Part shown: piece by piece, positions 30,761-58,041 of the stretch
Layout of the letters: each line of letters opens with the position of its first letter
Position numbering within the stretch: position 1 is the stretch's first letter
Source of the DNA: a virus
Reading direction: 5' to 3' (one strand)
DNA: 64,000 nt
Virus record (IMG/VR): IMGVR_UViG_3300045988_071280
Notes under the pieces: generated by a model
Database searches by the model: none
Seen by the model: only the letters and a program-made list of their open reading frames with translations
What the model was told of the DNA's origin: nothing
Position numbers and translations under genes: made by a program

Positions 30761-32127
30761 CACTATTTATACTTTATATTACTATAAAGATTAGACTATA
30801 TCTTTAACTTATCATTAATTTAAATACTTAAATAAATATCCTTTACAAGTTTTTCCTCTTCCTTTTAAAACTCTTCCACAACCTGGATATTGCTTACTAC
30901 ATTCTCCTACAGTTTTAAAAGTTTCTAATAATTCTCCATCTAAAGAATATCTTCCGACCATTCTTCCGGTATGAAGATACTTAGAAGATTCTTTATTTGG
31001 CATGGCTGGAATTTTTTCTATACTCCATTGATAACCTTGCCAAGTTCTATTTAATTTAATTGCACTACTAATACCCTTTTTTCCTAAAGCTCTTTCAGCT
31101 TCTGCAAAAGAACTATATTCATTTAAATATTCCCCAGAAAGGGAATATTGATATACAGGAGTATTTTTTAATTGCTTACATTTAGCTCTAGAATAATTAC
31201 CTTCTAATTCGTAAGATACATATTTATTATTTATCAAATATCCAGCTTTTATTGCTCTAATAACATTTCCTGTTGCAGAATTTAATTCTTTAGCAGCATC
31301 AGTTATAGATTGATAAAATTTTTCATAATTTCCATCTTTATCATATTGATAAACAGGAATTTTATGTTGATCAATAATAAAGTCTTTTGGATTTACTGAT
31401 TTAAATTTTTCAGTTGTCCATAGATATTTAGCACAAGGATGTTTTGTCATTATAGCAATACTTAATGTTGTATAATATCTATCTACAGCTCTTGAAGCAT
31501 CTGCAATAGATTTATATTCATTTATATATTCTCCTTCTAAAGAATATTGATATACAGCTTTAGCATTTACTCCTCTATCTCCCCCATTTCCTCCTAAAGC
31601 AGTGTTATACACATCCTTTCTTTTTAAAAATTCTTCATTAACAATAATTGATTCTAAATAATAAGCATCTTCTTCATTATCAAAAACTTGGATAGTTTTT
31701 CTAATAAAGGCTTTTACTCCATATTTATTAACAGCAGCTTGAAATACTGTTTTACTGAATTTATATGTAGAAGGTTGATTTATAACAACCCCACATCCTA
31801 AATACCCATCAAAAATATCTGGATTTTCGGTTTGATGTACTCCCACATATATTTTTTTATTAATTGTGTTAGTAGTTAGATATACTATATATTTCATATT
31901 TAAATTTTTATAAGTTAATTCCCATTTCCAGATAAAATCTGTACTCCTTGCGGATAGTCGTTGAACGTTCCTTTTGCGTTACTCAAAGAGCCTACTTATC
32001 AAAAGGCTTCGCTGCTGATTGTCTTTAAGTAGCAGATTAAAGATATTCCAGCAATTAAAGAATTTAATTTATCATACTGTTTCCAGTATGCGACCCATGT
32101 TTAACATAGACGTTTGTTAAAAGTCCC
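30761..32127 (-). mobile_element. group I intron (P/Q/R/S family) carrying a GIY-YIG homing endonuclease gene, 1367 nt
   Basis: Core elements: P 32048-32056, Q 32011-32020, R 31955-31966, S 30794-30802. P1 pairs exon GACCU with GGGUC. P2 is CATACTG-GAAA-CAGTATG. The ORF sits between R and S, i.e. in a P8-type position. Confidence 0.8.
30815..31897 (-). CDS. GIY-YIG homing endonuclease with four NUMOD/IENR1-like repeats, 360 aa
   Basis: The N-terminus MKYIVYLTTN...KIYVGVHQT...YLGCG...AVNKYG...FDNEEDAYYLE follows the GIY-(10-11)-YIG pattern. Four ~45-aa repeats of the type VYQYSLxGEYxNEY...A follow. The ORF lies wholly inside the intron. Confidence 0.85.
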   Translation of the reverse strand: MKYIVYLTTNTINKKIYVGVHQTENPDIFDGYLGCGVVINQPSTYKFSKTVFQAAVNKYGVKAFIRKTIQVFDNEEDAYYLESIIVNEEFLKRKDVYNTALGGNGGDRGVNAKAVYQYSLEGEYINEYKSIADASRAVDRYYTTLSIAIMTKHPCAKYLWTTEKFKSVNPKDFIIDQHKIPVYQYDKDGNYEKFYQSITDAAKELNSATGNVIRAIKAGYLINNKYVSYELEGNYSRAKCKQLKNTPVYQYSLSGEYLNEYSSFAEAERALGKKGISSAIKLNRTWQGYQWSIEKIPAMPNKESSKYLHTGRMVGRYSLDGELLETFKTVGECSKQYPGCGRVLKGRGKTCKGYLFKYLN

Positions 32128-32929: not shown

Positions 32930-34223
32930 CGTTTAATGAACTATTCTATTTAAAGAATTTAGACTATATCATTTACTTATTTATGATATTTAAAGATATA
33001 ATCCTTATAATATTTATCACCCATCTGAATATTTTTTAATTTACTAGATGGGATATTGTATTTTTCTCTTACATCTTTTATACTATCTAAAGTCTCTATA
33101 TAATTTCCAAATGTATCATATATATCAATCGTTATTCCTTTAGAATAATATTTATCCGGAATATTTATTACTTCTGTGGTTGATATATAATAATCCTTAT
33201 ACCATCCATTATTATATAATATCACATTCTTAATTTTATTCCAAGAATGGAGCTTTATAACCTTCATCACCATCTTACCCTTAAATTGTCCTATATAAAC
33301 TCCATCTTTATTATATACATGATATATTAAATTCTTATAATTTGCTCTAGTTTTTGGAATAAATTCATCAACCAATTTATTAGATATATAATACTTATCT
33401 AATACCAAAGATTGATTTTTAATAGCTTTATTTATATCTAAATCTCCAAGATATTTAATACATTCATCCTTATCTAAGAACTCATTTAATAATTTCCCTT
33501 TTTTAGTATATAAATAAATAGTATTATTTAATTTATTTAAAGAATATTTAATAACATCTATCTCCGGTTCTAATGACCAATAGGAATTAAGAAATTTAGA
33601 TTTATTACTTATCGCGAATTGAAATTTTTTAGGAGATTCTCCATAAAAATCATATGCTTCTAAGGAATAATTCCATTTCTTCTCTAATTCTCCAGTTGTA
33701 TTAAATTGATATAAAGGAGATATGTTATTTACACTAGAACAATAATTATACGTATGATCGGAATTTAAAAAAGTATCATTAACTAATTCTAATTCCTTTT
33801 CATATGCCTCTTCTGGAGTATTAAATATATATAATATAGTCCTCTCAAAAGCCTTCGTCCCATATTTTTTAACAGCATATTGGAACGGAGTTTTTGGATA
33901 CATAAAAGTACTTGGTTGATTTATATAAACTCCAGATCCTAAATACCCATCAAAAATATCCGGATTTTCGGTTTGATGTATTCCGATATAAATTTTATTT
34001 AATTCTCCAACTTTAGATTTTAAATTTTTAGTAAGATATACAATATATTTCATAAGTAATTCAGTTTTTCAATCTTATTTATAAGATTTACAGGTTTCCC
34101 TTAGTCGTTGAACACTACTTTCATCAAAGTCATGCTGCTGATTGTCTCTAGTAGCAGTAAAGATTCCCAGCAATTTAAAGAATTTATTGTGAACCTCATT
34201 GATTCACATCCACGTCCCACTCA
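32930..34223 (-). mobile_element. group I intron (P/Q/R/S family) carrying a GIY-YIG homing endonuclease gene, ~1294 nt
   Basis: Core elements: P 34167-34175, Q 34134-34143, R 34102-34113, S 32962-32970. The omega-G is at 32930. The 5' splice site is ambiguous: 34224 (P1 CUAU/GUGG) and 34230 are both phase-compatible. Confidence 0.75.
32977..34053 (-). CDS. GIY-YIG homing endonuclease, 358 aa (paralog of 30815-31897)
   Basis: The N-terminal ~95 aa are clearly homologous to the other intron ORF (MKYIVYLTKN...IYIGIHQTENPDIFDGYLGSGV...AVKKYGTKAF). The C-terminal DNA-binding part has diverged. Confidence 0.85.
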   Translation of the reverse strand: MKYIVYLTKNLKSKVGELNKIYIGIHQTENPDIFDGYLGSGVYINQPSTFMYPKTPFQYAVKKYGTKAFERTILYIFNTPEEAYEKELELVNDTFLNSDHTYNYCSSVNNISPLYQFNTTGELEKKWNYSLEAYDFYGESPKKFQFAISNKSKFLNSYWSLEPEIDVIKYSLNKLNNTIYLYTKKGKLLNEFLDKDECIKYLGDLDINKAIKNQSLVLDKYYISNKLVDEFIPKTRANYKNLIYHVYNKDGVYIGQFKGKMVMKVIKLHSWNKIKNVILYNNGWYKDYYISTTEVINIPDKYYSKGITIDIYDTFGNYIETLDSIKDVREKYNIPSSKLKNIQMGDKYYKDYIFKYHK

Positions 34224-36753: not shown

Positions 36754-36897
36754 TTATTTATTTAATAAAGTATTTAATTTAGATAGTATAAGAGTTAATA
36801 ATTCATTATTCTCTTTTACATAATCTAATATACATAGTATTTGTTGGGATTGAGGACATTTATCACATCCTTTACATTCCCTTAAAGAATCTTCCAT
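36754..36897 (-). CDS. possible small Cys-containing protein, 47 aa
   Basis: Unlisted ORF MEDSLRECKGCDKCPQSQQILCILDYVKENNELLTLILSKLNTLLNK*. It fills the gap exactly, and its stop lies 1 nt before the next ATG. Confidence 0.3.
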   Translation of the reverse strand: MEDSLRECKGCDKCPQSQQILCILDYVKENNELLTLILSKLNTLLNK

Positions 36898-36901
36898 ATT
36901 A

Positions 36902-37672
36902 TTAAGCGTCTATTGTTAAATATTCTATAACCATTCTAGGATTATTATAATCTATATTAACTTGTATACCTCCAATTTGTAGTCCAGTAGAATCTAATGG
37001 AATAGCATTAACATTTCCAAAATCCCATAAAAGTACTCTTATACTATTTGATTCATTGATATGATATAACTTATTATTTATATATTCTATTGTGAAAATA
37101 TTAGCTTCTCCCATATTTCCTCCATATATTATAGGATGATTAATTGGATCAGCATTTCCATTAACGTCTTGTACTACTATTTTAATTGTTGAGTTAGTAG
37201 TATCTGTACTTCTTAATATACTTAAATACTTTTTATCATTAGTATCTGATACTAAAAGAGTTAATAAACAATTATAAGAATTTTCAGAACTTCCAATAGC
37301 AGTAATAGTATATCTAAAAGAAACTCTCCAATTATTTTTTCGATTCTCGAATAGATTAGCTATTAATATAGATGAATAATCTTTCATAAACATAGCTCCA
37401 TAACTATTATGCTGAATTAATCCTAATTCTTGAATAAATGAAGTAACAGAAGATGTAGTTGTATTAGATACTCCATCATATAAAAAAATCTGAGATAATA
37501 TTTTAATTATATCATTATCTGCTGGAAAATCATATAAACTATAACTACTAAGTGGAGTAGGATCGGCTCCAGAAAGAATAGCTCCATCTTTATGTATAAA
37601 ATTCATATTTGTACTACTAGGAGATCCTAATCTATTAGCAGCATCTTTAAGAGTTAAAAAATCCTTACTCAT
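36902..37672 (-). CDS. receptor-binding-like tail protein, 256 aa
   Basis: The N-terminal ~60 aa (MSKDFLTLKDAANRLG...ADPTPLSSY) are homologous to the N-terminus of 39125-40180. The C-terminal part is unrelated. Confidence 0.5.
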   Translation of the reverse strand: MSKDFLTLKDAANRLGSPSSTNMNFIHKDGAILSGADPTPLSSYSLYDFPADNDIIKILSQIFLYDGVSNTTTSSVTSFIQELGLIQHNSYGAMFMKDYSSILIANLFENRKNNWRVSFRYTITAIGSSENSYNCLLTLLVSDTNDKKYLSILRSTDTTNSTIKIVVQDVNGNADPINHPIIYGGNMGEANIFTIEYINNKLYHINESNSIRVLLWDFGNVNAIPLDSTGLQIGGIQVNIDYNNPRMVIEYLTIDA

Positions 37673-37676
37673 ATTT

Positions 37677-37991
37677 CTAAGTTTTAGTTCCGAATACTAT
37701 CCAATCTATAGTTTTTGGATCTTTTCCTCCACTATACAATTCTATATATGTCTTTGTTACACCCATAACATTACAAGAATATCCAGCTTCGTTATTTCCC
37801 CGAAATGAACATACAGCAGTTCTTGGTATATAATCTCCTTGTAACGATACTCTAGTTTCAGTATGTCCCTCACATAAAGTACTTCCCATCTCGAATACTA
37901 AAGGACCTAATGTCATAACTACATGACCTGGTCTAGTTATATCATGTTGAGTCTCTAATATATTATCTAATTCCGTTATAAACTCCGCCAT
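37677..37991 (-). CDS. small fibre-associated paralog A, 104 aa
   Basis: Starts MAEFITELDN and ends GGKDPKTIDWIVFG. It belongs to a four-gene tandem paralog set. Confidence 0.5.
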   Translation of the reverse strand: MAEFITELDNILETQHDITRPGHVVMTLGPLVFEMGSTLCEGHTETRVSLQGDYIPRTAVCSFRGNNEAGYSCNVMGVTKTYIELYSGGKDPKTIDWIVFGTKT

Positions 37992-38308
37992 AATTGATTA
38001 TTTACTGATAATCCTATTATTAAAAATGTTACAGTTTTATCATCTTTCCCTCCAAGAGAAAATGTTACTCCTGTAGTATTTAAACTAGATATACTTATAG
38101 CATATCCTTGTTCATCATTATTTTTTAATGAAGCCATTCCGGTAATTATCCCACTAAATCCTTTTAATGGTACAGAAACAACATCATACCCAGGACAAGT
38201 AGTAGTTCCATAAGCGATTCGTAGTCCTTTATAATTTATATATGTAACAGGATCTACCATTTCCACGGAATAGTCCTCTAAATTATCTTCTGTTAAAAAT
38301 TCAGCCAT
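37976..38308 (-). CDS. small fibre-associated paralog B, 110 aa
   Basis: Starts MAEFLTEDNL, contains NNDEQGYAISISSL and ends GGKDDKTVTFLIIG. Confidence 0.5.
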   Translation of the reverse strand: MAEFLTEDNLEDYSVEMVDPVTYINYKGLRIAYGTTTCPGYDVVSVPLKGFSGIITGMASLKNNDEQGYAISISSLNTTGVTFSLGGKDDKTVTFLIIGLSVNNQLWRSL

Positions 38309-38310
38309 AT

Positions 38311-38604
38311 TTAATCACTTTCTCCTATTATTAAATAATAAAATTCTTTAGGATCTTTCCCTCCGAGTATGAAAGTAGCCGAGGTATTAGTATAAGAGGA
38401 TAAATTTACTGTATAACCTGCTTCATTATTATTTTTTAAACAACAGAATACTCCATATACTGATTTAAATCCGGAATAAGTAATTGTTATACCTCTACTA
38501 GTTATAGAAGAATATCCTCCAACCATTCTGAGTCCTAAACCTTCAATCCCTCCAGATCCAGTAGAATCTAAAGCTCTATCGTCTACAGTTAGATATTCTG
38601 CCAT
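38311..38604 (-). CDS. small fibre-associated paralog C, 97 aa
   Basis: Starts MAEYLTVDDR, contains NNNEAGYTVNLSS and ends GGKDPKEFYYLIIG. Confidence 0.5.
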   Translation of the reverse strand: MAEYLTVDDRALDSTGSGGIEGLGLRMVGGYSSITSRGITITYSGFKSVYGVFCCLKNNNEAGYTVNLSSYTNTSATFILGGKDPKEFYYLIIGESD

Positions 38605-38605
38605 A

Positions 38606-38746
38606 TTATATTATTTTAGCTCTTTGTTTTAATCGATGTATATCATCTTCTAAAGATTGGATTTTGTCTTTTATTATATTTAATTCTAAGGAATCTTTTT
38701 TGATAAAGATTCTATGTAAAAATGTTTTAATTTTATTTAATAACAT
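38606..38746 (-). CDS. possible small coiled-coil protein, 46 aa
   Basis: Unlisted ORF MLLNKIKTFLHRIFIKKDSLELNIIKDKIQSLEDDIHRLKQRAKII*. Its stop lies 1 nt before the next ATG. Confidence 0.3.
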   Translation of the reverse strand: MLLNKIKTFLHRIFIKKDSLELNIIKDKIQSLEDDIHRLKQRAKII

Positions 38747-38756
38747 ATTAATTAAA

Positions 38757-39094
38757 TTAATATCCTATAGCTAACCAAAAAAATTCACTTCTGGTATTTA
38801 CTGGAGCAGTTCCTACTAATTCCACTGTTAACGAGGAATTTGTGAAGGATTTAATAGTTAAAACATCTCCTTTAGACCAATAACCATAATAGTTATTAGG
38901 AGTGAGTTGCACCATACAGCATTTAGTAGGAAATGTTTTTGGATATGATACTGTTGCAGTCATACTTCCAGTATTAAAGTTACTAAGTCCTGACTGTATC
39001 AATATCCCCCCCCCTGTAAGGTATCTGCTTTTGTAGGAGCTGTTTTAGAGAATAAGGTATTTAAATTATCTTTGGTTATAAATTCCTTTGCCAT
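38757..39094 (-). CDS. small fibre-associated paralog D, interrupted by a -1 frame change at a G9 tract
   Basis: The ATG at 39094 gives MAKEFITKDNLNTLFSKTAPTKADTLQGGGY*, with the stop at 39001-38999. The rest (ILIQSGLSNF...EFFWLAIGY*, track ORF 38757-39002 with a TTG pseudo-start) is in the -1 frame. One extra G, or a -1 slip on the G9 run, joins the two parts. Confidence 0.6.
39006..39014 (-). repeat. homopolymeric G9 tract (C9 on plus strand) inside a coding region
   Basis: Counted directly in the text: aatat-ccccccccc-tgtaag. Confidence 0.95.
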
Positions 39095-39124
39095 TTATTA
39101 ATATTTTATTTAATTATTATATAT

Positions 39125-40180
39125 TTATGTTAATTTTTTATATGTATTTCCACTTGTATTTAATTCTGTCCACCATATATCTCCTTTATAATTAATTAGT
39201 TCTGGCTGTATTCCAACATTTCCAAAATTCTTTACTATAGTACCGCTATATATCTCACATAAACAAGGATATTTAAGAGTAGCAGATTGAGATACATTTA
39301 TACACTTATTGCCTCCGTATATTAAGCATCTAACAAAAAATTCAGTCATCGGAGTGTATGATAAAGAAAGACTTGATGTTTGAGAAGAATGATAATCCCA
39401 TGTACTACTAGTCCTTATATAGCTATTATTAGTCTCTGCGTTAGCAAATGTAGCATAATTACCATTAGATTCTTTAGTAAGAACTTGAGAATACATAGTA
39501 GGACTAACATCCGCTCCTTTAGTATAAGAATATGAATCATTAGTCTCATTTACATATAACCTAGCTACACATCTATACGTTCCTCCAACATCAAAATACG
39601 CATAATGATAAGTGCCAACCTTCTCTACAAAAGAAAAAGTTCTCGGATATTTAAAATTACTACCAGTATAAGCAGCTATAGTAGTAAGAGTATTATTAGA
39701 TGTATTTAATTTATATATTCTAAATTGCGTATTAGCATTTGAAGAAGATCCACTACAACAAAATAGATAATTACCTGATAAAGCCGAAGTAGCTATATTA
39801 TACCAATATCCAGTAGAACCACTTAGAGATATAGATGTGGTAACCATTGTACCATTAACCACAACTCCGAAAGTGATATTTTTAAAATCAGAAGCTGCAT
39901 AAACAAATGGAATTCTTTCATCATCAGGATCTGCTACAACACCTATACGACAATAGACACTTCTGGAAGAAAGAAAATCGTTTAGAACCTGCATATTATC
40001 TACTTTCCTATTTACATCGTCATACGCAACGAAATCAGTATTAGCATAGCTAGTAAGTAAATCAGGATCCGCCTTTAATAAAAGAATATTTTGCTTTGAT
40101 ATATATTCAGTACCTCCAGTTACTGGTATACCTTGTAATTTCTCTATTGCCTGGTCAATTGTTATAAATTCCTTACTCAT
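39125..40180 (-). CDS. receptor-binding-like tail protein, 351 aa
   Basis: The N-terminus MSKEFITIDQAIEKLQG...ADPDLLTSY is shared with 36902-37672. The C-terminal part is rich in S/T/Y/N beta-formers. Confidence 0.5.
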   Translation of the reverse strand: MSKEFITIDQAIEKLQGIPVTGGTEYISKQNILLLKADPDLLTSYANTDFVAYDDVNRKVDNMQVLNDFLSSRSVYCRIGVVADPDDERIPFVYAASDFKNITFGVVVNGTMVTTSISLSGSTGYWYNIATSALSGNYLFCCSGSSSNANTQFRIYKLNTSNNTLTTIAAYTGSNFKYPRTFSFVEKVGTYHYAYFDVGGTYRCVARLYVNETNDSYSYTKGADVSPTMYSQVLTKESNGNYATFANAETNNSYIRTSSTWDYHSSQTSSLSLSYTPMTEFFVRCLIYGGNKCINVSQSATLKYPCLCEIYSGTIVKNFGNVGIQPELINYKGDIWWTELNTSGNTYKKLT

Positions 40181-40235
40181 AACAATTCCAATAACGAGAT
40201 TTTATTTTTTAATAATCTATTTAGATTCTTTTCAT

Positions 40236-40244
40236 CCCCCCCCC
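40236..40244 (-). repeat. homopolymeric G9 tract (C9 on plus strand), intergenic, 56 nt upstream of the ATG at 40180
   Basis: Counted directly in the text: ttcat-ccccccccc-tattta. Confidence 0.95.
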
Positions 40245-40277
40245 TATTTATAGAGGATTTTAAAGATATTTTATATA

Positions 40278-42653
40278 TCATATTTTCCATACTTTCTTTA
40301 AATTACTTATTTCTTGTTCTAAATATTTTATTTTTTCCTCAAATTCTTTCTGAGATTTAATTCTTAAATTATATTCCTCTTTTAAAGCCTCTTGAAGAAG
40401 GATTGTATATCTCTCATATGAAAATGTTAAAATAGAATTATTTATTTCTCTTACAAGCTCTGGATAATATTTATTCCAGTATTGAGCTGAGGTTCCTATA
40501 CATAAATCATTCTCGTCCATCCAATTATATTTAAATCCGGGAGAATTTAGTACTAGAGGTAATATATTAGATAAATTCTCTATATTATGTTTATATCTAA
40601 TATCAGATACAGAAGTTGTCCCAGCTCCGTTTGTATGAACAGTATGTTTTGTGAAAGTGATTTCATCAAGACTGTTAATTTTAGCCATTATTGATTCAGG
40701 TGTTTCTCCTGAAGAATTCATTAATGTATCTACATCGGCTCTTAAACTAAGAATATCTTGTTGTAATGGAACTAAATCAGATAGATAAGATATTTCATTA
40801 TCTCCCCATGTAATCCTTCTATTAAAAGTGCTAGGTATATTAAATACATTATTAGTTCCCTCCCCATTTGGAATCCATACTCGAAGATCGGTATCCATAC
40901 CTAATATTGACCAGTTTATTTCTTTTGTAGAAGATGCAGATAATTTAAGCATTCCATTTATCTCACAATCTCCTTTTAATCTTATGTACCTACAATATAC
41001 TTTTTCAGAATAGACTCCGTATATATCAGAACTTAATAAAGTATCAAAATATATAGGATCTCTAATACCTTCTAAACATCCCAATCTTAATCTCGGAGAT
41101 AAGGGTGCGACTTCATCATTTATACCTAAATAAGATTTATCTAAACATTCTCCAGTTTCGGGGTTTGTTTCTCTAATACTATGTAAATACAAAGAATCCC
41201 AATTTCTAAAATATAAAACATCTCCAACTTCCGGAAGTTTTTCTAACTCTCTCTTCCTTTCCTCATCAGTAGTTTCATCTAAATACTCTTCTAAATCCTT
41301 ATCTAAAACATTTTTATCAATAGTAGCAACTATATTACATCCAGAAATTGTAAAAGTATCCTCATCATAAATCCATTCTAATTCTTCAATCTTAATCCTA
41401 CCTTTAGATATTATTTTAGTAGTAGGAATTAAAGTGCTTACATCAATCTCTTCCTCAGAATCTTCTGGTATTTCTACATTATATCCATAAGAATACTTCT
41501 CAAAATATAAATAATCTCCTATTTTTATATTATAAATCCCATTTATAGATATCTCGTATTTAATAGGAATAACTTCCTCTGTTTCTCCTCCAGATTCTTC
41601 TTCATTAGGAACTATTTCAGATATACTAGATACAATTCCTTGTGGTTCAAAGAAATAATTAGTATTTAATCCTTTAGTAATAAAATCCTTCTCTTTAGAT
41701 GAACCATCCCCAAACGGGCCTTTAGCAGAATTTCTCACTATTAAATTATCTACTTCTAAAGTCCATTCGGAATTTATATTCGCTAATCTATATCCAGCCA
41801 TTCCTTCTATGAAATAATCTGATATTATCCCAGAATTAAGAACAGCTTCATCTTTTACATACATATTCCCATCTACTTCAAAATTATAGTTATAAGTTGG
41901 AGGATATCCTATAGATATATAATTCCCATTTATATATGTAATACCTTCTTTAGAATTAAATTTAATACCAGAAGTATTAGTATCTAAAGTTACTCCACTA
42001 TTATTAACTATTATATCTAAATAATCATTCTGATTTTTTATCTGCATCCCATTTGATCCTATTACATTAAAATCTCTAGGTCCATGAAGATTATTTTCTA
42101 AATTAATAGTTACTTTATCCTTAACTATTCCTCCGGAATTAAGACTTAAATATAATTCTACTAAAGTCCCATTATCATTATAATAATGAACTTTATCATC
42201 TGAATTAAAATAAACAAAATCAATAGGTAAAATTGCAGTATTATCTTGATTATTAATAATAACTTTTAAATTTCTTTGAGCAGTTCTAATCTGTTCTAGA
42301 GTAAGATCTTGATTATAATTAATAGCTAAATAATCCTCAGAATTCTCTACATCATCTCTTTTAGATAGTACTGGATATAATATTCCATTTATTTGAAAAT
42401 AAATAGCATCTTCCGATTCCACAAAATACCATCCATCCGCAGTTCCTATATCATTTTTATTCTGAACAATATTTATACTCTTATCATTACCATCAGTCTT
42501 AGATATCTTTCCGTTAGAAATAAGATCCAAGAAAGCATTTCCGAATCTAACTTTTACATTACCTTTTCCATTAAGAATTATATCAGTATCAGCAGATCCA
42601 ACCATTAAATATGGCTTTCCTAGAATCTTTTCTACTTTAATAAGTTCTCCCAT
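40278..42653 (-). CDS. tail fibre/spike with C-terminal intramolecular-chaperone (peptidase S74-like) domain, 791 aa
   Basis: The C-terminus has TSVSDIRYKHNIENL...FKYNW...IGTSAQ...FSYERYT followed by a coiled coil, which is the S74 autoproteolytic chaperone signature (SDxRxKxNI). It is homologous to the C-terminus of 45930-52364. Confidence 0.75.
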   Translation of the reverse strand: MGELIKVEKILGKPYLMVGSADTDIILNGKGNVKVRFGNAFLDLISNGKISKTDGNDKSINIVQNKNDIGTADGWYFVESEDAIYFQINGILYPVLSKRDDVENSEDYLAINYNQDLTLEQIRTAQRNLKVIINNQDNTAILPIDFVYFNSDDKVHYYNDNGTLVELYLSLNSGGIVKDKVTINLENNLHGPRDFNVIGSNGMQIKNQNDYLDIIVNNSGVTLDTNTSGIKFNSKEGITYINGNYISIGYPPTYNYNFEVDGNMYVKDEAVLNSGIISDYFIEGMAGYRLANINSEWTLEVDNLIVRNSAKGPFGDGSSKEKDFITKGLNTNYFFEPQGIVSSISEIVPNEEESGGETEEVIPIKYEISINGIYNIKIGDYLYFEKYSYGYNVEIPEDSEEEIDVSTLIPTTKIISKGRIKIEELEWIYDEDTFTISGCNIVATIDKNVLDKDLEEYLDETTDEERKRELEKLPEVGDVLYFRNWDSLYLHSIRETNPETGECLDKSYLGINDEVAPLSPRLRLGCLEGIRDPIYFDTLLSSDIYGVYSEKVYCRYIRLKGDCEINGMLKLSASSTKEINWSILGMDTDLRVWIPNGEGTNNVFNIPSTFNRRITWGDNEISYLSDLVPLQQDILSLRADVDTLMNSSGETPESIMAKINSLDEITFTKHTVHTNGAGTTSVSDIRYKHNIENLSNILPLVLNSPGFKYNWMDENDLCIGTSAQYWNKYYPELVREINNSILTFSYERYTILLQEALKEEYNLRIKSQKEFEEKIKYLEQEISNLKKVWKI

Positions 42654-45929: not shown

Positions 45930-48900
45930 TTATATCAATTTCTGTATTAATGAGGTCAAATCGTTTAATCTAGTATTTAAAGAATCAATTTCTTCTTTAA
46001 ATCTCTTCTTTTCCTCTTCTCTTAATCTATGTTCTTCTTTTAAGGCCTTTTGTAATACTACTGTATAACGTTCGTAAGAGAAGGTTTTTGTTCCATCTTC
46101 CATCTCATGTACTAATGTTGGGATTTTATCTTCCCAATATTGTGCTGAGGTACCGATAGAAGTAGTTTTTTCATCTTTCCAGTTATATGTAAATTCTGGA
46201 GCATTGAGGACTTTATTTAAAGTATCATCTGGTAGAGATTTAAGATTAGATTTAAATCTTATATCTGATGTAGACTGTAACCCTGCTCCGGCTGAACATA
46301 CTACGTGTTTACTGAAAGTAATTTCAGACTGGGAGTTAATTTTTGACATAATAGTAGCAGCTGTCTCAGCACTTGGAATAGAAGGCTTACCTGAGATTTC
46401 CGACCATGAATATGATGGTTTTGTAGAGGCTTTTGCCCACGCATACACATCAGATGCTGGCATAGATGAGGGGAAATCAGTAATCTGAGATTTAGTATGT
46501 GTGTGAGATGATGGAGTGAATGTTGAAGGCTTACCACCGATAGCATCCCAAGTTAATTCGTCAGCAAATGCAACACGTTTCCAAGAGTTCCAGGTAGAAA
46601 GTATACCAGTTCTAAAATAAAGGCCCTTTGTAGGTACACCCCCATTCCCATTATATCCTACAAGTTCCCAGGAAGAATAGTTCGAACTCCATCCATGTAC
46701 ATGAATACCTCCCCAATAATCAGAGGTAGGCATTATGTTATTAGTAAATATAGCTTTCAATATATTACTCCCTACATTATTCGGGTACAGTGCAGTATTT
46801 CTGGTATCCTCTATTAGTAATGAGGAATGAGTATGAAAACTAGTAGCTGCCCCAATAGCAGCAGGAGTGATATTCACAGTTTTAGCTGCATTAGGAGCAT
46901 AGGTAGTATTAGTAGATCCGTTGAATTGGATAGTCAATGATGCTATATTATATGTATCTAAAATAGTATAGTCTGTACCACTCCTTCTATGGATCAGATT
47001 ATTAGCCCCTGACTCCAATCTAGTAAATCCTTGAGCAGTTCCAATAATTACATTTCTAGATCCATATGCATTTAAATACATATCTTCTGAATTACTAGCA
47101 CTAGCTCCTATATATCCACATCTTACATCTCCTTTATAAAAGTCCATGTAAGCTTCTTTATTAGATGAGGTATTCTTTAAAGATAATACAGGACCAGGTG
47201 TTGTTCTGGTAAGAGTCCCTCCTGATAATGGAAGATATTTATCTAAATCAGATTTATAAGGTATTTCACCAATTAAAGTTCCTGAATTAGTTCTAATTTC
47301 TGGTCCATTTTTTAAACAAAATACTTTATCGTTTACTCCATCTGATAAAAAAGTACCAAGTGAGCCTGATTCAAATCCAACACCACCCTTAATACTGTTA
47401 CCAATAGAAAAAATAAGATCGACCGCAGGTGCAGAACTTGGTGAATTAATTCTTAATACAATTCTATCACTACCACTTAGTACCCCTCCACTTAAAGGTA
47501 AAAAATCAGATGTAGAAGGAATTTGAGATACTTTAGCTAATTCCTCGTCATTAATAAAAACATGACCTCCAGGGGAAATTTTTAACATACTGGTAGCTGA
47601 TGTATTATTAGGATTACTAAGAGATAGTATTCCGTTATCTCCTGATACTGTAGTTTCAAGAGTATAATTATTTCTATATATCCTTATATAATTATAGACA
47701 TCCTGAGAAGAGCTTCCTATATTCAAACTTCCTGTTAATGTGCCTCCACTCAAAGGTAAATAATTACTTAAATGGGTTGTAGTAGCTAACTCTTTCCAAG
47801 ATGTATGTGCTGTAGGATCTTCCAAAGAATTAGATCCTCCTCTCACAAACCACCTATTAGTACTATATGTACCATAAATTTGACTAGATCCATGATATGC
47901 TCCCGGAATAACAACGAGAGATCCTGCCTCTTGTATAGGATATCCTCTATCAGTAGTAGCATCACCACTTTTTATTTGAGCTGCCATCATCGGAAGATGG
48001 TTAAATGAACTATTTATGCTTATAGTATCAAGATTCCTGGAAAAATTATATCCGTCAAATACTGTATATAACGTACCTCCCCTATCATGTACTAAATTAA
48101 ACAGTCCTGATCTTATTCTAGTAGTTCCGTGTTCAGCTCCTATATGAGTGTATTGTGAATCCTCAGTACCTCCGTTACTGAATACAAGAAGAGAGTAATT
48201 AGTAGCTCTGTCAAGAATTCTGGCTATACTCAGGTCATTATAAATATCTACAGGAATATTATTAAATTTAGAACCTCCAATAATCAAATGGGCATTAGTA
48301 GTTACGTATATTCCTTCAACAGCACCAGATGTCGTATTAAACAGTATTCCTTGGTTATTAGCTAATATAGGTCTCCCATCTTCTCCTATAGTCATATAAC
48401 CTCTACCACTATAAGGATAGTATACAGTACTCAGCTTATTTATATCTGATTTAAATGCAACTTGTTCAAACCAGTTTATTTTTCCATTATTTCCTCCACC
48501 TATAATTACACTACGATTATTACTAACAGGACTTATACTAATATACGCATGAGTATCTCCTGCTGCAAATCCTATAGAAGAAGAAGTAGCGGGACCTAAA
48601 CCACTATCTCCACTATTAGATCTAAATGGGACTATCCATGAAGTAGAATCATTTACTCCCCATATAGATTCTCTGAAATTATTTAAAAATAAAGTTCCAA
48701 AACTATCAGAAAGAGTATATTTTATTCTAGTAGCTTTAGGAGTCCCTATAATATTCCCCTCTAAAGTGTAATTTAATAAAAGTTCTTCTACATTTAAGTT
48801 ACTAGTATCATAGACTATGTACTCAGCACCATTCTTATAATGTTTTATATCATTGTCTCCTATAGTATGAATCGTAGTCTGTGAATTCTGATCATTTCCA

Positions 48901-51900
48901 GAAGTAATTATTCCCGATTTAATATTTCCATTAGCATCAGTATACCCTAATCTAGTAACATAATTATTCCCGGAATTATCTATATTTAATAACGCAGTAT
49001 TACCTAAATCACCTCCTATTAAAGTTTCATAATCCCCGAAGCTTCCTAGATATAAAGAAGTACCATTAGTACTATCTCCCATAAATAAAGCCCATGCATT
49101 TTCTCCAGTATCAGTCTTATTTACTAACGCAGAAATTGGAGAAAAATATAAAGGACCAGTTAAAGCATTTATAGATCCAGCACTTAGAGGTAAATAATGA
49201 CCAACTAAAGACTCTACGGTAGCAAAGGGTTTTCCATCTTCATCACAGAAATTTCCCCACATTGGAAAATCAACATGTAGTGGAGTATATGTTGAATTAA
49301 GATTATATATAACACTTCCGTTAGATTCTACAGTCTCACTAAGTTCTAATGTATTCTGTGGAACTCCAGATACATCACTACTTGAAGTGATAATAAATCC
49401 TCCTTTTGTATAAACTAATGTCACTTTCTTATTAGGATCGTCTGGATTAACGGCTACAAGACTATCGTATCCATCTATAGAAGTAATAGTATTAGTATTA
49501 CTATCCCAAGTTAAATAGTTCTTATTTAATTTAGAATAATCCGCAAATAGTATTTGAGAACGATCTGAGGTTCTAAATCCTGTAGGAATTATTATATTAG
49601 AGCTAAATGCTAATTCCGGAGATGATGTATTAATTATAGCACGTTCAGGAGATGGGATAAGTGTTATAGTATCATCATCCATAGTAAATACAAAACCGAC
49701 ACCTTGATTGGAAATTCTAACCCCTTCCCTTTGGAATCCTATATAATACTGTGAGTTACCTATAATAATAGGATTGCCAAAGGTAAAAGCTTTGTGAGTA
49801 TCAGTATATATAAGTAATTCAGAATTTTCATCAGGTGTCAGATTATCAGAAGATATAATAAAGCTAAAGTATGTCTGTATATCTTGCTCAGTTGTATAAT
49901 TTTTTATTCCGACAATACCTAAATCACCACCACTGTTTATTATTCTAATAAAATTAGTGTCGCCTTCTAACTCAGCAAAATTTAAACTACCCCTATCAGC
50001 ATAAATCATATTAGAAGAATAAATCAATTTCTTATCAGGATTATACTGCAAGAATTTCCTATCTTCTATATTTGTATCTAAATAAGCTGATTCATATCCA
50101 TCATCTCTTTTAAAAGCTGGAGCCCAAATCTCTTTATCAAATACATATTTAGTAGCAGAAGGGCTTGATTTAAATAAAATATCATCTAAAACCCTCAAAC
50201 TTAAATATTTATCATTAGTATCTCCATATTGTAGATATAAATCATTATCAACTCTTTTAAATATAAGATCGGTATCTTTCTCAGATAAATTCTGTAATGC
50301 AAATCTTAATGCTAATTGAATTGGAACCGTGCTCGTAGTTTGTGCTCTTTTAAATGTAGAATTCCAGGTTAAGAAAGCACCATCTACCATATCAGGTTCA
50401 TTGTCCCGAAGCATTAAAGGGAATTGATTTCCCTCAGTTCCGCATTTAAACCTATCATCGGATTCATCAAAAATAATAAAATAATTTGGAAGTTTTCCTC
50501 TATCAATCTCCAATCCAGAGATTCCTTTAGTAACGCCTTCACCTTGTTCCCCACTATTTAAAGTAAGGATGTTATCAGTTACTTTTACTTCTTCCGTATC
50601 TATAATAAAAGCATCTCCACCAAATACTATATCTTCTTTAATAGTTAAATTCCTAACTATTAAATCCCCATATTCTGTATCATCCTCATTTCTAACACTA
50701 AATCCTTCTTTTTCATTCTTTAATATCTGATCTCCTATTTTCCATGTTTTGGAAGGAGTACCTTCGTATGTAAGAGGATTACCATTAATATCTTTTAACC
50801 CTTGTATTATATTGAAATCAGTTGAGGTAATAGATCCTGCAATAGTTGATGTAGCCATTGGGAGAGAATAATACTTATCCTCGTAACTATTTAAAAAAGG
50901 ATTATATGATTGGTAATGTATAATTGCTTGTGTTGCGGATGTAGTTTCAGTATCAGTTAATTCTGTTAAATATTTAACTATATTATCTAATTTCCCTTTA
51001 TCGGATGATGACATTACTCCAGCCTTTTCTGGAGTTGCGGATTTAAATACTATCTGTACCAGTTCTTCTGTTCCTGTTTGAGGATTATTGGATGTTAGAT
51101 TTAATACAACAGAATTAGAATTATATGTATTATCAGATATAGCTTGAATAATAGAAGAGATATTTCCTAATTTATTCTTCTCCATTGCTGTAATTAATCC
51201 AGCAGTTGATGAAGTGGCAGCATCTAATACTAAATATTTAGATGTTAATTGTTTAGATATAGGATCGTATATAGGAAATATTATCTGTAATTCTTGTCCT
51301 GTATATTCTTTAGTAGTATCTCCAGTATAATAACTTTTTAAAGAGTCTATGTAATCCTTATACTTAGGAGACATTAGTCCTGATATAGCCGAAGAAGTAT
51401 CTGGAAAACTAAGTATCTTAGAACTAGATTGTCCAATTGTAGGATCTTTAGTAGTTACTTTAATAGAAGCTCTATTGTTACTATCTAAATATTCTACATC
51501 CTCAACATAATTATAAATCTGATTTATTTTAAATATTTGAGATGTATCTAATAAATCCTTTCCAGGAGCTACATCTACTTTTGATTCTAATAACTTCTGT
51601 ACTTCTTCTTTTGTATATATCTCATTATTAACAGTATTTAATAATCTAGAGAGATTTAAACAAGCCTCTTTAGACATTAAACCATTCTGATTTATATTCG
51701 CTTCTCGAATTGGTAAAGATTCAGTTCCATCACTACTAACTATATCTAATACTAAAGTATCAGCTCCGGAAAAAGATATCTCTTTTACATATTTAGTAAT
51801 TGAATCTAATTTAGTCTTATCTTCTTTACTAAATAATCCAGGAGTAGTTTGTGTAGCAACTGGAAGTGTAACACCATCTCCGGAAGAATTTAATATCTGA

Positions 51901-52364
51901 ATATTATCAGAATTTATTCTCATACTTAAATGGATAGTAGAAATATCTACCAAAGCTCCATCATTATATCTATATTCTGTAGAGTCTTTTTTATTAAAAA
52001 ACTCATATCCATCTTTTAATTGTACTCTATCCCAATATTTAAGAGTATCCCTCCAAGTACAGTGATAATATTTATCCTCTACTCTTAGTATATAAGATAT
52101 CCCATTCTTCGCGTTACCTGGGATATTATCTACTATATCCTCTACTGGACTTAAATGAGTAGGTTCTGTTACATCATTTAATTGAAGAATGTCTGTAGAT
52201 ATAATAACATCCGGAGATTGTTTAATAACAAGTTTTTTGGTAATAGGATTAAATTCTATTTCCTTAATTCTAAAATCCTCTACCCTTTTATCAAAACAAG
52301 ATTCAGGCGTTATATTATATACTTTACTTTCACATCCACTGGAATTTTGTGCTTTGGTAATCAT
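45930..52364 (-). CDS. giant tail fibre with repeat arrays and C-terminal S74-like intramolecular chaperone, 2144 aa
   Basis: The N-terminal third has about 6 repeats of the type xAGLMSxxDKxKLDxI. Motifs of the type YLPLSGGTLTG recur at least 4 times. The C-terminus has STSDIRFKSNLKSL...FTYNW...IGTSAQ...FSYERYT plus a coiled coil. Confidence 0.8.
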   Translation of the reverse strand: MITKAQNSSGCESKVYNITPESCFDKRVEDFRIKEIEFNPITKKLVIKQSPDVIISTDILQLNDVTEPTHLSPVEDIVDNIPGNAKNGISYILRVEDKYYHCTWRDTLKYWDRVQLKDGYEFFNKKDSTEYRYNDGALVDISTIHLSMRINSDNIQILNSSGDGVTLPVATQTTPGLFSKEDKTKLDSITKYVKEISFSGADTLVLDIVSSDGTESLPIREANINQNGLMSKEACLNLSRLLNTVNNEIYTKEEVQKLLESKVDVAPGKDLLDTSQIFKINQIYNYVEDVEYLDSNNRASIKVTTKDPTIGQSSSKILSFPDTSSAISGLMSPKYKDYIDSLKSYYTGDTTKEYTGQELQIIFPIYDPISKQLTSKYLVLDAATSSTAGLITAMEKNKLGNISSIIQAISDNTYNSNSVVLNLTSNNPQTGTEELVQIVFKSATPEKAGVMSSSDKGKLDNIVKYLTELTDTETTSATQAIIHYQSYNPFLNSYEDKYYSLPMATSTIAGSITSTDFNIIQGLKDINGNPLTYEGTPSKTWKIGDQILKNEKEGFSVRNEDDTEYGDLIVRNLTIKEDIVFGGDAFIIDTEEVKVTDNILTLNSGEQGEGVTKGISGLEIDRGKLPNYFIIFDESDDRFKCGTEGNQFPLMLRDNEPDMVDGAFLTWNSTFKRAQTTSTVPIQLALRFALQNLSEKDTDLIFKRVDNDLYLQYGDTNDKYLSLRVLDDILFKSSPSATKYVFDKEIWAPAFKRDDGYESAYLDTNIEDRKFLQYNPDKKLIYSSNMIYADRGSLNFAELEGDTNFIRIINSGGDLGIVGIKNYTTEQDIQTYFSFIISSDNLTPDENSELLIYTDTHKAFTFGNPIIIGNSQYYIGFQREGVRISNQGVGFVFTMDDDTITLIPSPERAIINTSSPELAFSSNIIIPTGFRTSDRSQILFADYSKLNKNYLTWDSNTNTITSIDGYDSLVAVNPDDPNKKVTLVYTKGGFIITSSSDVSGVPQNTLELSETVESNGSVIYNLNSTYTPLHVDFPMWGNFCDEDGKPFATVESLVGHYLPLSAGSINALTGPLYFSPISALVNKTDTGENAWALFMGDSTNGTSLYLGSFGDYETLIGGDLGNTALLNIDNSGNNYVTRLGYTDANGNIKSGIITSGNDQNSQTTIHTIGDNDIKHYKNGAEYIVYDTSNLNVEELLLNYTLEGNIIGTPKATRIKYTLSDSFGTLFLNNFRESIWGVNDSTSWIVPFRSNSGDSGLGPATSSSIGFAAGDTHAYISISPVSNNRSVIIGGGNNGKINWFEQVAFKSDINKLSTVYYPYSGRGYMTIGEDGRPILANNQGILFNTTSGAVEGIYVTTNAHLIIGGSKFNNIPVDIYNDLSIARILDRATNYSLLVFSNGGTEDSQYTHIGAEHGTTRIRSGLFNLVHDRGGTLYTVFDGYNFSRNLDTISINSSFNHLPMMAAQIKSGDATTDRGYPIQEAGSLVVIPGAYHGSSQIYGTYSTNRWFVRGGSNSLEDPTAHTSWKELATTTHLSNYLPLSGGTLTGSLNIGSSSQDVYNYIRIYRNNYTLETTVSGDNGILSLSNPNNTSATSMLKISPGGHVFINDEELAKVSQIPSTSDFLPLSGGVLSGSDRIVLRINSPSSAPAVDLIFSIGNSIKGGVGFESGSLGTFLSDGVNDKVFCLKNGPEIRTNSGTLIGEIPYKSDLDKYLPLSGGTLTRTTPGPVLSLKNTSSNKEAYMDFYKGDVRCGYIGASASNSEDMYLNAYGSRNVIIGTAQGFTRLESGANNLIHRRSGTDYTILDTYNIASLTIQFNGSTNTTYAPNAAKTVNITPAAIGAATSFHTHSSLLIEDTRNTALYPNNVGSNILKAIFTNNIMPTSDYWGGIHVHGWSSNYSSWELVGYNGNGGVPTKGLYFRTGILSTWNSWKRVAFADELTWDAIGGKPSTFTPSSHTHTKSQITDFPSSMPASDVYAWAKASTKPSYSWSEISGKPSIPSAETAATIMSKINSQSEITFSKHVVCSAGAGLQSTSDIRFKSNLKSLPDDTLNKVLNAPEFTYNWKDEKTTSIGTSAQYWEDKIPTLVHEMEDGTKTFSYERYTVVLQKALKEEHRLREEEKKRFKEEIDSLNTRLNDLTSLIQKLI

Positions 52365-53171: not shown

Positions 53172-53971
53172 TACTTTCTACAATTACAAGAACTAAATCC
53201 AGTAGAGTATTTAAGGTAATCATTATTACAAAATCCTCCACAAACCTGAATCTCTTCTATAATTCTCTCGGCTTCATAATAACTACATTTATCTATTAAT
53301 CTATGGATTAATTCTAAAGCTATAAATACCATATTCCTATCTCTAAATACTTGAGAAATATTATTATCATTTTTTATATTACATCTAGTATATAATTTAT
53401 TATAATAGATATATTTTAATTTATTCTCGTAACAATATTCTAAATTCCCTAAAAGAAATGTCTCTTCCTCAATCCCTATTATATTAGAATTAGACTGATT
53501 ATTATATAAATCCATTATAGATATCTTCTTTTCAGTATAACTTCCGGATATAATAGTTATTTCATAAATCTCTACTTCTCCATTTGAAAGTTCTTTCGCG
53601 GAATAGAATATTTCTCCTTCCATATTTAAACTAGATGGAGATACTCCATGAACCCATTCGTAATTAGGTAACGCTAAATGATCTATTATATGCCATCCGT
53701 CTATTTTAGTAGAATAGTTTAATTTATAATCAGTATATTCCTGATCTGAATGACATACATAATAAAAATCTGATACTTTAGGATCATCTATAGTATTTAG
53801 AGTAATTAAATCAATAAATACAATATCTTTTGTTCTTAAATAATTAGCGGATATCTGAGATACTTCTGGATAGATACTACTAGTACTTATACCAGTAGTA
53901 TCCTTTAATGTAAATCCAGATATTCCGTATTCAGTTAATGAAATACTTAAATTTAATGAAATATTTTTCAT
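53171..53971 (-). CDS. hypothetical structural-module protein, 266 aa
   Basis: ORF whose start overlaps the portal stop by 4 nt and whose stop overlaps the next start by 1 nt. Confidence 0.45.
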   Translation of the reverse strand: MKNISLNLSISLTEYGISGFTLKDTTGISTSSIYPEVSQISANYLRTKDIVFIDLITLNTIDDPKVSDFYYVCHSDQEYTDYKLNYSTKIDGWHIIDHLALPNYEWVHGVSPSSLNMEGEIFYSAKELSNGEVEIYEITIISGSYTEKKISIMDLYNNQSNSNIIGIEEETFLLGNLEYCYENKLKYIYYNKLYTRCNIKNDNNISQVFRDRNMVFIALELIHRLIDKCSYYEAERIIEEIQVCGGFCNNDYLKYSTGFSSCNCRK

Positions 53972-54999
53972 TTTCCAAAATTTACTTCGTTATTTCTAGG
54001 ATTATTATCAAATAATTGTGCCCATTCAATATTAGCTTTCTTTTCTTCGATCTTATTCCTCTCTTTATCATTCTCATCTTTAGATTTAGCAGTAAACCAT
54101 TTAATAGAGGAATCTTGTTCTTTTTGTTTTAGATTTTCTACTTCTTTAATAGATTTTTGCAATTCCTCTTGAAGTTGCTGTATCTGTTGTTGAGCTTCTT
54201 TAAGAGCTTGATCATATTGCTGTATTTGTTGTTGAGCTTGTTGTATTTGATTATTCTCCTCTTTTTGACGTTTAATTGCATCTAATGTTATTTGTTTATA
54301 TTCTGTGATACTCTTACATCCAATAGCTTGTACTAATACATCAGCTGTTAATTGTCCTGATTTAATTAACTCAAGATTATATGCTTTTATAGTTTCTAAG
54401 TCTTGTAGAGCGGATTGAGTATCAGCAATATTTATATCAAAGTCTGTTACTGTATAATGTTCTGGAAGTGCTGTGAAAATAGCTTTTTGTTTCTCTCCAA
54501 GAATTATAGTTCCTTGAAATCCATCTTTATATACTACTTTAGCTATATTTAAACTATCTAAGAATAATTCTCTTAAAGCTAATGCCATGTTAGAGAAGTA
54601 TATTTTTGTGACAATTAGTGATTGATTAATTCCGGTTCTAACATTAGTAACAGCATCTCTGGTTTCAACTCCTCCAATAGCTTCTCTAAATGCTCCTGTT
54701 ATATTAGATGCAAGTTGCTCTATTTTTTCTATAGCTAGATCTAGAGCTTGCATGGATTGGTAGGATAAACTCATATCATATGTATTAAATACAGCATTTG
54801 GCATAGATTGTCCAGCCTCACTTTGGGAAGTATCTAATGCTGCGAATCCTTGTTTTACATACGCCATGAATTTAAGTAATCTGTTTGTTTCATCTTCCTC
54901 GTCTAAGAATGTGGGGATTTTAGAGAAATCTACTGCAATACCTTTTGTTCCACTTACTGCAATGGCATTATTTCGAAGGAAAAATAGTATATTATACAT
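53968..54999 (-). CDS. portal protein (putative), exon 2 of 2
   Basis: Corresponds to track ORF 53968-55002. An in-frame TAA lies directly upstream of the ATG ATG, so this cannot be a plain continuation of exon 1. The exon starts after the omega-G at 55000 (or at 54997). The C-terminus is a Q-rich coiled coil. Confidence 0.65.
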   Translation of the reverse strand: MYNILFFLRNNAIAVSGTKGIAVDFSKIPTFLDEEDETNRLLKFMAYVKQGFAALDTSQSEAGQSMPNAVFNTYDMSLSYQSMQALDLAIEKIEQLASNITGAFREAIGGVETRDAVTNVRTGINQSLIVTKIYFSNMALALRELFLDSLNIAKVVYKDGFQGTIILGEKQKAIFTALPEHYTVTDFDINIADTQSALQDLETIKAYNLELIKSGQLTADVLVQAIGCKSITEYKQITLDAIKRQKEENNQIQQAQQQIQQYDQALKEAQQQIQQLQEELQKSIKEVENLKQKEQDSSIKWFTAKSKDENDKERNKIEEKKANIEWAQLFDNNPRNNEVNFGK

Positions 55000-57772: not shown

Positions 57773-58041
57773 CATATTTGTTATCTATAAGGCTTTTTAT
57801 CCTTATATTCTTATAATTTCTTATAAGTTCAGCATATATTTTCATCTTATATTTAAATAAGATGTTCCGCACTCGTGGAAGGATTATTACTCTCATTAAC
57901 GTTCACCTTCTATGCGTTACAATGGCTAACGATGTTTTAGCTTATCTCGGTATTAGCATGGTATTTAAACTTTAACTTTCACCGATTTTGCGGAATTATT
58001 TTATTACCTTAAATTTCTTTAAGGAGGGACATGTAAGGTTT
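57773..58041 (-). mobile_element. group I intron (terL family), ORF-less, 269 nt
   Basis: P1 pairs exon GGGGAU with GUCCCU and carries a U.G. P2 is CCTTAAA-GAAA-TTTAAGG. P3 is TTCCGCA/TGCGGAA. The 3' end is GATAACAAATATG followed by the exon. It is homologous to the other two terL introns. Confidence 0.7.

Follow-up and report, generated by a model that had tools for sequence, protein, structure and literature searches.

A six-gene cassette of candidate modular adhesins with a variable G tract beside a tail-fibre gene of a distant crAss-like phage

Organisation of the cassette

We describe a cassette of six genes, here named A to F, that occupies positions 36,902 to 40,180 of a 64,000-nucleotide stretch of viral DNA (IMG/VR record IMGVR_UViG_3300045988_071280), hereafter the window, which has a GC content of about 29% and carries all of its genes on the minus strand. 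Each gene opens with a variant of one short peptide (Table 1). In the six-frame translation of the window the pattern M[AS][KE]?[ED][FY][IL]T matches six times, always at these open reading frame (ORF) starts, as compared to a mean of 0.015 matches and a maximum of 1 in 200 shuffles, and the first-pass annotation of this DNA, made from the sequence alone, had placed all six starts correctly. Since the motif codons vary synonymously among the six genes (Ala as GCA, GCT or GCG; Thr as ACA, ACC, ACT or ACG) and the DNA upstream of the six starts is not conserved, the constraint on the motif acts on the protein.

Two architectures follow from the motif: F and A consist of an N-domain of about 58 aa and a large head, and E, D, C and B of an N-peptide of about 10-30 aa and a knob of about 80 aa. 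A and F have 56 N-terminal residues in common (39% identity, E-value 4e-8) and diverge beyond them, close to the figure of about 60 residues given previously. Two details of the first-pass annotation need correction: the six genes are not strictly adjacent, as a 46-aa ORF without the motif intervenes between E and D, and the spacing ranges from -16 to +30 nucleotides (nt) rather than from -16 to +2 nt. The intervening ORF, small and conserved, is also called as a gene in the relative L012 and has no Pfam or PHROG family match better than an E-value of 0.022.

Table 1. Features of the cassette and its surroundings in the window.
Feature	Position	Strand	Length	Description
47-aa ORF	36754-36897		47 aa	Cys-rich (CxxCxxC); beside the cassette; small, conserved
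A	36902-37672	minus	256 aa	Start MSKDFLT; N-domain residues 1-58 (37499-37672), low-confidence linker, predicted ConA-like jelly-roll head
B	37677-37991	minus	104 aa	Start MAEFIT
C	37976-38308	minus	110 aa	Start MAEFLT
D	38311-38604	minus	97 aa	Start MAEYLT
46-aa ORF	38606-38746	minus	46 aa	No motif; between E and D
E, whole gene	38757-39094	minus		N-peptide, KADTLQGGG linker, Gp53-like_C knob; OFF as sequenced
E, knob ORF	38757-39002	minus	81 aa	Pfam PF21882 Gp53-like_C
E, N-terminal ORF	38999-39094	minus	31 aa	Start MAKEFIT
G9 tract in E	39006-39014	minus	9 nt	Between 31-aa and 81-aa ORFs; hypermutable, candidate phase-variation switch
F	39125-40180	minus	351 aa	Start MSKEFIT; N-domain residues 1-58 (40007-40180), predicted helix 53-71, predicted beta-propeller-like head
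37-aa upstream ORF	40177-40290		37 aa	Runs through intergenic G9; ATGA overlap with F start codon
Intergenic G9	40236-40244	minus	9 nt	Between G and F; upstream end-point of natural deletion
G, tail fibre	40278-42653	minus	791 aa	C-terminal Peptidase_S74 intramolecular chaperone; directly upstream of cassette
Tail protein	45930-52364	minus	2144 aa	Peptidase_S74 chaperone at residues 2033-2085
Homing-endonuclease-like ORFs	30815-31897; 32977-34053			phrog_314; structural region downstream of lysis-like genes
Portal ORFs	53968-55002; 56114-57322			Intervening ORF 55073-55942
Large terminase ORFs	57996-59063; 60894-61724			Intervening ORF 59221-60108, matching PHROG endonuclease family phrog_4645

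The N-domain and its heads

Searched against 1.84 billion representative proteins (E-value below 1e-3), the N-domain profile recovered 99 clusters, nearly all matched at residues 1-58 of proteins of 150-400 aa, with the consensus MSKxFLTxxQAxxKLG...FxTKxxL...GaD...L..Y...dFVvDDDIvk; neither Pfam nor PHROGs holds a family for it. The 51 clean members carry 36 BLAST-distinct heads, a few with matches to Laminin_G_3, BACON or DUF285 and most without any family match. Exchange can also be followed in place. For instance, the A position of L012 has another head of about 200 aa (P0174) behind the same 57 N-terminal residues, and a head of the P0174 type is found at the F position behind another N-domain type (P0177, in L016). 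At the level of sequence, the architecture of a conserved N-terminal module joined to unrelated, exchangeable heads, as proposed in the first-pass annotation, holds: the N-domain stands at residue 1 of all 36 heads, and both the conservation of the N-terminus in relatives and the shuffling of heads among them that this proposal anticipated were found.

The homologues of F, 184 in number and all close, reverse one part of that proposal. Judged by their alignment, conservation lies in the head (77-98% identity) and variation in the anchor, for which at least three divergent but alignable N-domain types occur. One patch of the F head (alignment columns about 262-345, window about 39180-39430) occurs in two sharply different allelic forms, ESNGNYATFA...SYTPMTEFF and EDTGRYSTWH...SREVITGFF, among homologues that are otherwise about 90% identical, and in its sequences looks like a mosaic of the kind found on receptor-contact surfaces.

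Structures were predicted for both large proteins with AlphaFold2 (AF2). The F model has a predicted local distance difference test (pLDDT) score of 65, and its top Foldseek matches in the PDB are all beta-propellers, the head matching the clathrin terminal domain, the prolyl-oligopeptidase propeller, WD40 proteins and sialidases. The A model scores 65 overall and 73-84 in the N-domain, where the alignment is deep; its head matches PL7 alginate lyase, galectins, LamG/LNS and the lectin-like domain of botulinum toxin (BoNT) Hc in the PDB, and LamG/concanavalin A (ConA)-like phage proteins in BFVD. Both models have a strand at residues 5-7 and a helix at residues 8-15, to which the A model adds a second helix at 28-33. 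The predicted classes, beta-propeller-like for F and ConA-like for A, are typical of receptor- or glycan-binding domains and, to judge from models of moderate quality, agree in fold class with the earlier expectation of fibre-like folds. A T7 run on the coding strand at the linker between N-domain and head of A (37482-37488) is T6 in L003, L009 and L018, where the resulting frameshift splits A into ORFs of 82 and 164 aa; this is either a real polymorphism or a homopolymer error.

When the N-domain consensus and full-length E were searched by tblastn against 50,697 phage records, only Dulem virus 41 was returned. A tblastn search with one distant N-domain member gave a match in the crAss-like cr85_1; in IMG/VR neither a distant N-domain sequence nor P0211, used as queries, led to a confirmed locus. 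Among the relatives with an N-domain, L034 and L038-L042 have almost no long ORFs under code 11, which suggests stop-codon reassignment; this has been reported for some crAss-like lineages.

The knob proteins

The knob of E matches PF21882 Gp53-like_C over model positions 7-84 of 84 (45.2 bits against a gathering cut-off of 24.9; E-value 1.4e-11) and also matches PHROG tail-fibre families. D, C and B each consist of an N-peptide and a putative knob paralogue, C and B overlapping by 16 nt. By hhalign, B-D align with E over the full length (probability 78%, E-value 1.8e-5); the hidden Markov model (HMM) of E matches D at residues 18-94 (E-value 3e-4), that of B-D matches full-length E (E-value 1e-4), and in a set of 231 proteins the two are reciprocal best non-self HMM matches across the knob region (E-values 1e-4 to 4e-4). 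On these matches B-E form one paralogous family of proteins of about 100 aa, and B, C and D are, by profile comparison, remote paralogues of E.

The first-pass annotation had likewise counted four paralogues of about 100 aa, which is right as to the family; the MAKEFIT gene, however, is as sequenced a 31-aa ORF separated by G9 from the 81-aa knob ORF. The internal NN(D/N)E(Q/A)GY and the GGKDxK reported for all four are common to B, C and D, but E has NNYYGY and VGTAP in their place. Close relatives of B, C and D number only 27 among 5.8 billion proteins. Public data contain a cluster of 88 shortened C variants (89-93 aa), and public sources annotate the proteins described here as “hypothetical protein”, the one exception being a 104-aa protein in the C cluster, which bears a spurious enzyme name. 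Neither the E nor the BCD alignment profile found anything significant among PDB sequences.

A variable G tract within E

The window contains exactly two runs of six or more G or C, both of them G9 on the coding strand, and one of these lies within E. The frame of E depends on the length of the tract: G10 gives a protein of 112 aa and G7 one of 111 aa, and with G8, G9 or G11 the product is shortened. Across 22 distinct related contigs the tract ranges from 5 to 12 G, with 9 in frame (ON) and 13 out of frame (OFF), the latter in both wrong frames; the independent sources are a GenBank genome (G12), an ENA SPAdes contig (G12), the IMG/VR contigs and the window. GGG makes up only 9.8% of the Gly codons in the window, so the G run of E has been kept in spite of codon bias.

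The knob ORF downstream of the tract is intact in all OFF alleles but one. Its ratio of non-synonymous to synonymous substitution rates (dN/dS) is 0.08-0.36 at dS up to 0.74, comparisons of OFF with OFF alleles included, and this strong purifying selection indicates that the E gene is used. From these sequence comparisons, reversible slipped-strand switching fits E better than decay. We considered E as a decaying pseudogene and reject this on the dN/dS values; L018 and the deletion derivative L014 are exceptions that do look decayed.

Other tracts, deletions and recombination

The flank of the intergenic G9 aligns with the 5' coding sequence of the type-3 N-domain, at its Gly-run, and the tract is therefore probably a relic of type-3 Gly-run codons, left when a type-1 N-domain replaced a type-3 one. 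Its length and flank vary in L003 and L012. In L014 (6060-6420) a clean deletion runs precisely from one G tract to the other and takes out the whole of F together with the 5' part of E; the leftover E knob contains a stop codon and a frameshift. Where F has the type-3 N-domain in relatives, that domain has a Gly-run tract of its own, and F is cut short there in L007 (G10) and L020. C is frameshifted in L027 (7360-7700) by a G11 tract where the window has GGAGGGAAA at 38045-38053. The first-pass annotation had put one member under G-tract control; the E tract does vary between genomes as a switch would, but in relatives tracts affect further members and mark the end-points of deletion.

Recombination between knob paralogues is indicated by chimeras with the N-terminus of D and the C-terminus of B (P0129-P0131), whose junction lies at the common NNNEAGY motif; P0197 joins the N-terminus of F to the C-terminus of E. 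L008, L010 and the Dulem type lack the whole D-C-B-A block. The cassette was searched for invertible segments, shufflon-like repeats and terminators, none of which turned up, and sigma-70-like sites are no commoner there than in shuffles. The intergenic G9 lies within an upstream ORF of 37 aa. We considered whether translation of F is coupled to this ORF and rejected the idea, the ORF being conserved in neither L003 nor L012; to judge from its sequence it is probably a by-product of the relic.

Genomic setting

In five lineages the gene directly upstream of the N-domain gene ends in Peptidase_S74: the window, the Dulem type, cr85_1 of the Steigviridae, whose S74 match is below threshold, and two loci that look unrelated, L037 and L043. 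Lysis genes lie downstream of the N-domain genes wherever the downstream genes could be read. In the window the upstream gene is G, residues 683-735 of which match PF13884 (E-value 8.8e-7) and which also matches PHROG tail-fibre families, so that the cassette follows a tail-fibre gene, in keeping with the tail adhesins proposed previously. Because the pair of S74-fibre gene and N-domain gene recurs, gene order hints that the N-domain proteins belong to the tail-fibre apparatus, perhaps on the fibre itself once the chaperone is cleaved off.

Read along the minus strand, the window begins with the terminase and portal genes, each interrupted by endonuclease ORFs, and continues with the 2144-aa tail protein, the fibre G and the cassette, the chaperone being C-terminal in both fibres. 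Small membrane proteins resembling those of PhiCrAss001 lysis, an acidic scaffold-like protein and large virion proteins follow. The terminase is only 24-26% identical to those of classified Crassvirales, from which we take the window to be a distant crAss-like phage. Dulem virus 41, from lemur faeces, has only the F-E segment in common with the window (88% nucleotide identity) and differs in the rest of its genome, which indicates that the module moves between lineages.

Several side observations concern the wider window. The phage has two self-chaperoned fibres, G and the 2144-aa tail protein, and the C-terminal end of the latter resembles that of the Dulem-type fibre. The portal and large terminase genes are each split in two around an intervening ORF (53968-57322 and 57996-61724), which suggests introns or inteins in essential genes. 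Two further homing-endonuclease-like ORFs and a small Cys-rich ORF are listed in Table 1.

Discussion

Based on the architecture, family distribution, synteny, predicted fold classes, tract variability and knob selection computed here, we infer incorporation of these proteins into the virion, N-terminal docking, a site on the tail, glycan binding and an ecological role; with moderate confidence, we propose that the tail-fibre module of this crAss-like gut phage has the cassette as its distal end, and that the cassette encodes a set of modular virion-surface adhesins. Each protein would carry an N-terminal attachment element, a beta-strand “EF[IL]T” and a short helix, extended to a domain of about 58 aa in F and A; by analogy with the fibre proteins of PhiCrAss001, which dock by their N-terminal segments (PMC10172136), this strand and the helix that follows it are likely the docking element. 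To this element would be joined different heads that probably bind or cleave glycans: a propeller in F, a ConA-like domain in A and gp53-type knobs in E, D, C and B. The likeliest attachment site would be the tail-fibre apparatus, specifically the upstream fibre G, matured by cutting off its S74 chaperone. The set may be diversified by exchange of heads at the domain boundary, by recombination and loss among the tandem knob paralogues, by poly-G slipped-strand changes that switch E in and out of frame (and F and C likewise in relatives), and by deletion between G tracts. The outcome would be a phage population with mixed adhesin sets, which may serve as a bet-hedge against variable host surface glycans.

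More tentatively, and as a possibility that we rate below the proposal as such, we speculate that the cassette belongs to a plug-in system of crAss-like gut phages not described before, in which glycan-binding heads, dozens of them and interchangeable, are attached by the docking domain of about 58 aa, or by the minimal strand and helix, to a tail fibre once its S74 domain has been shed, with the poly-G tracts as reversible ON/OFF switches and as points of recombination and deletion. If this was the case, one phage lineage would continuously make virions with different combinations of adhesins.

A number of results weigh against the adhesin proposal. The AF2 models of F and A, at pLDDT 65 and with Foldseek TM (template modelling) scores of 0.3-0.48, support only a fold class. 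B, C and D have no direct Pfam match at E-values up to 1. By hhalign no homology was detected between the N-domain and B-D, their common motif of seven residues being too short, nor any similarity between the N-domain and the N-terminus of PhiCrAss001 gp22, and in hmmsearch the BCD, E and N-domain profiles scored below 4 bits against PhiCrAss001 gp21-gp31. The window has two S74 fibres and an N-domain gene after only one of them, and the adjacency to S74 genes may merely reflect that both genes lie at the end of the fibre module. Finally, the lengths of the E tract were compared between assembled consensus sequences.

The main rival, which we consider unlikely, is that these are capsid head fibres or decoration proteins. 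In the cryo-electron microscopy atlas of PhiCrAss001 the first 26-58 residues of fibre proteins dock to the virion and the C-terminal parts project outward; gp22 is a tail fibre that docks into the tail hub, and gp21 (97 aa, trimer, residues 1-38) and gp29 (122 aa, dimer, residues 1-58) dock in pockets of the capsid hexons (PMC10172136). The knobs of about 100 aa would fit such a role best, since they match gp21 and gp29 in size and in the layout of an N-terminal docking segment and a small C-terminal beta domain; the gp29 gene lies inside the lysis cluster, and a site with many copies, hexons for example, would go well with several paralogues that have one docking peptide. Against this, no sequence similarity to gp21, gp22 or gp29 was found (bit scores below 4 for gp21 and gp29), the position of the cassette is unlike that of gp21 and gp22, and the C-terminal domain of E is a Gp53-like knob, from a family of tail-fibre C-terminal domains, and not phi29 gp8.5-like or Ig-like as in the PhiCrAss001 fibres. 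Moreover, in five lineages an S74 tail-fibre gene comes directly before the genes of the N-domain family, those of the cassette included.

Alternatively, the common N-terminus might reflect mere descent and local recombination without any docking role, and the proteins might be soluble or non-structural, for instance fibre assembly factors or lectins released at lysis. The paralogy of B-E and the chimeras between neighbours (P0129-P0131 and P0197) would be expected on this account, and genes just downstream of fibre genes often encode assembly chaperones, as with lambda Tfa, Mu U and T4 gp38. We think it improbable, however, as the position of the N-domain, residue 1, is kept across 36 unrelated heads in distant lineages, which argues for a function of its own that is independent of the head; in addition, the upstream fibre G already has its own intramolecular chaperone, and the heads are predicted to have lectin-like rather than chaperone folds.

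It is also conceivable that no heritable switch exists, the differences in the G tract being homopolymer errors of sequencing or assembly, or slippage in transcription or on the ribosome yielding E from every allele. Errors are frequent in long G runs, most of the related contigs come from one IMG data set, and the conservation of the knob ORF in OFF alleles would fit constitutive slippage as well. We nevertheless regard this as very unlikely: lengths from 5 to 12 G occur across independent sources, the presence of both wrong frames means that no single programmed shift rescues all alleles, long ORFs nearby with many A/T runs remain intact in those contigs, the tract is kept despite the rarity of GGG among Gly codons, and the L014 deletion joins two tracts exactly.

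Lastly, the opening “FLTxxEAAxKLG” of the N-domain resembles motifs of the excisionase/MerR type, the sole support in sequence for a helix-turn-helix (HTH) DNA-binding domain that would make A and F regulators, and the A model has a strand then a helix (residues 5-15) and a second helix, but we find this hardly credible and have dropped it for want of family support. A and F have no HTH match at E-values up to 1, and a scan of 76 family members (E-value up to 0.001) listed 25 families, none of them HTH. Moreover, the N-domain occurs in fusion with lectin-like or propeller heads, and its genes lie in tail-fibre modules.

Returning to the proposed set of modular adhesins, each of its ingredients has precedent. 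N-terminal docking segments occur in PhiCrAss001, as described above. Many podoviruses are known to attach exchangeable heads to an N-terminal anchor, among them those with tailspikes of the T7, SP6 and K1-5 type, and in Klebsiella KP32-type phages the second receptor-binding protein docks by a short conserved N-terminal peptide. As in these systems, a conserved N-terminus is found here on unrelated heads, several to a genome, with exchange at the domain boundary. The N-domain differs in being a distinct family without a Pfam or PHROG match; in F it is the anchor that varies and the head that is conserved, and four members of the cassette are minimal proteins of about 100 aa.

For the tracts, the closest parallel lies in Campylobacter phages, for which hypermutable polyG tracts in receptor-binding genes have been described (Sorensen et al., Cell Rep 2021, cited in PMC12823448; see also PMC10877375). 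As far as these accounts go, both cases involve a long G run in a structural or receptor-binding-type gene of a low-GC phage, the length of which varies between genomes and toggles the frame. The present case differs in that the phage is crAss-like and comes from gut metagenomes, in that the genes form an N-terminally related modular cassette, and in that the tracts, known from assembled genomes, lie at different members in different relatives and also at a deletion junction. We found no report in the literature of polyG switching in crAss-like phages.

The knob, too, has a counterpart: in Pfam, PF21882 Gp53-like_C stands for the knob at the C-terminus of gp53, a putative tail fibre of Acinetobacter phage AP22. 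The 81-aa C-terminal ORF of E covers nearly the whole of this model, above the gathering threshold; the domain otherwise caps proteins of 400-530 aa in PHROG tail-fibre families, whereas E has about 110 aa with an N-terminal part of 30 aa, and B-D are too divergent to match the model. New here are the meeting of these ingredients in one crAss-like lineage, an N-domain family that is paired with S74 fibres, and an array of minimal knobs.

In the human gut no viruses are more abundant than crAss-like phages (PMC10172136), and the cassette bears on the way in which these phages deal with Bacteroidales hosts whose surfaces are phase-variable. The unannotated N-domain family marks exchangeable heads, and its pairing with an S74-fibre gene suggests where these heads are attached. 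If the adhesin proposal is correct, the family would furnish an annotation rule for dozens of families now listed as “hypothetical protein”. The G-tract switches would make the adhesin content of virions heterogeneous, and polyG-driven phenotypic diversity would then extend from Campylobacter phages to the crAss-like phages of the gut.

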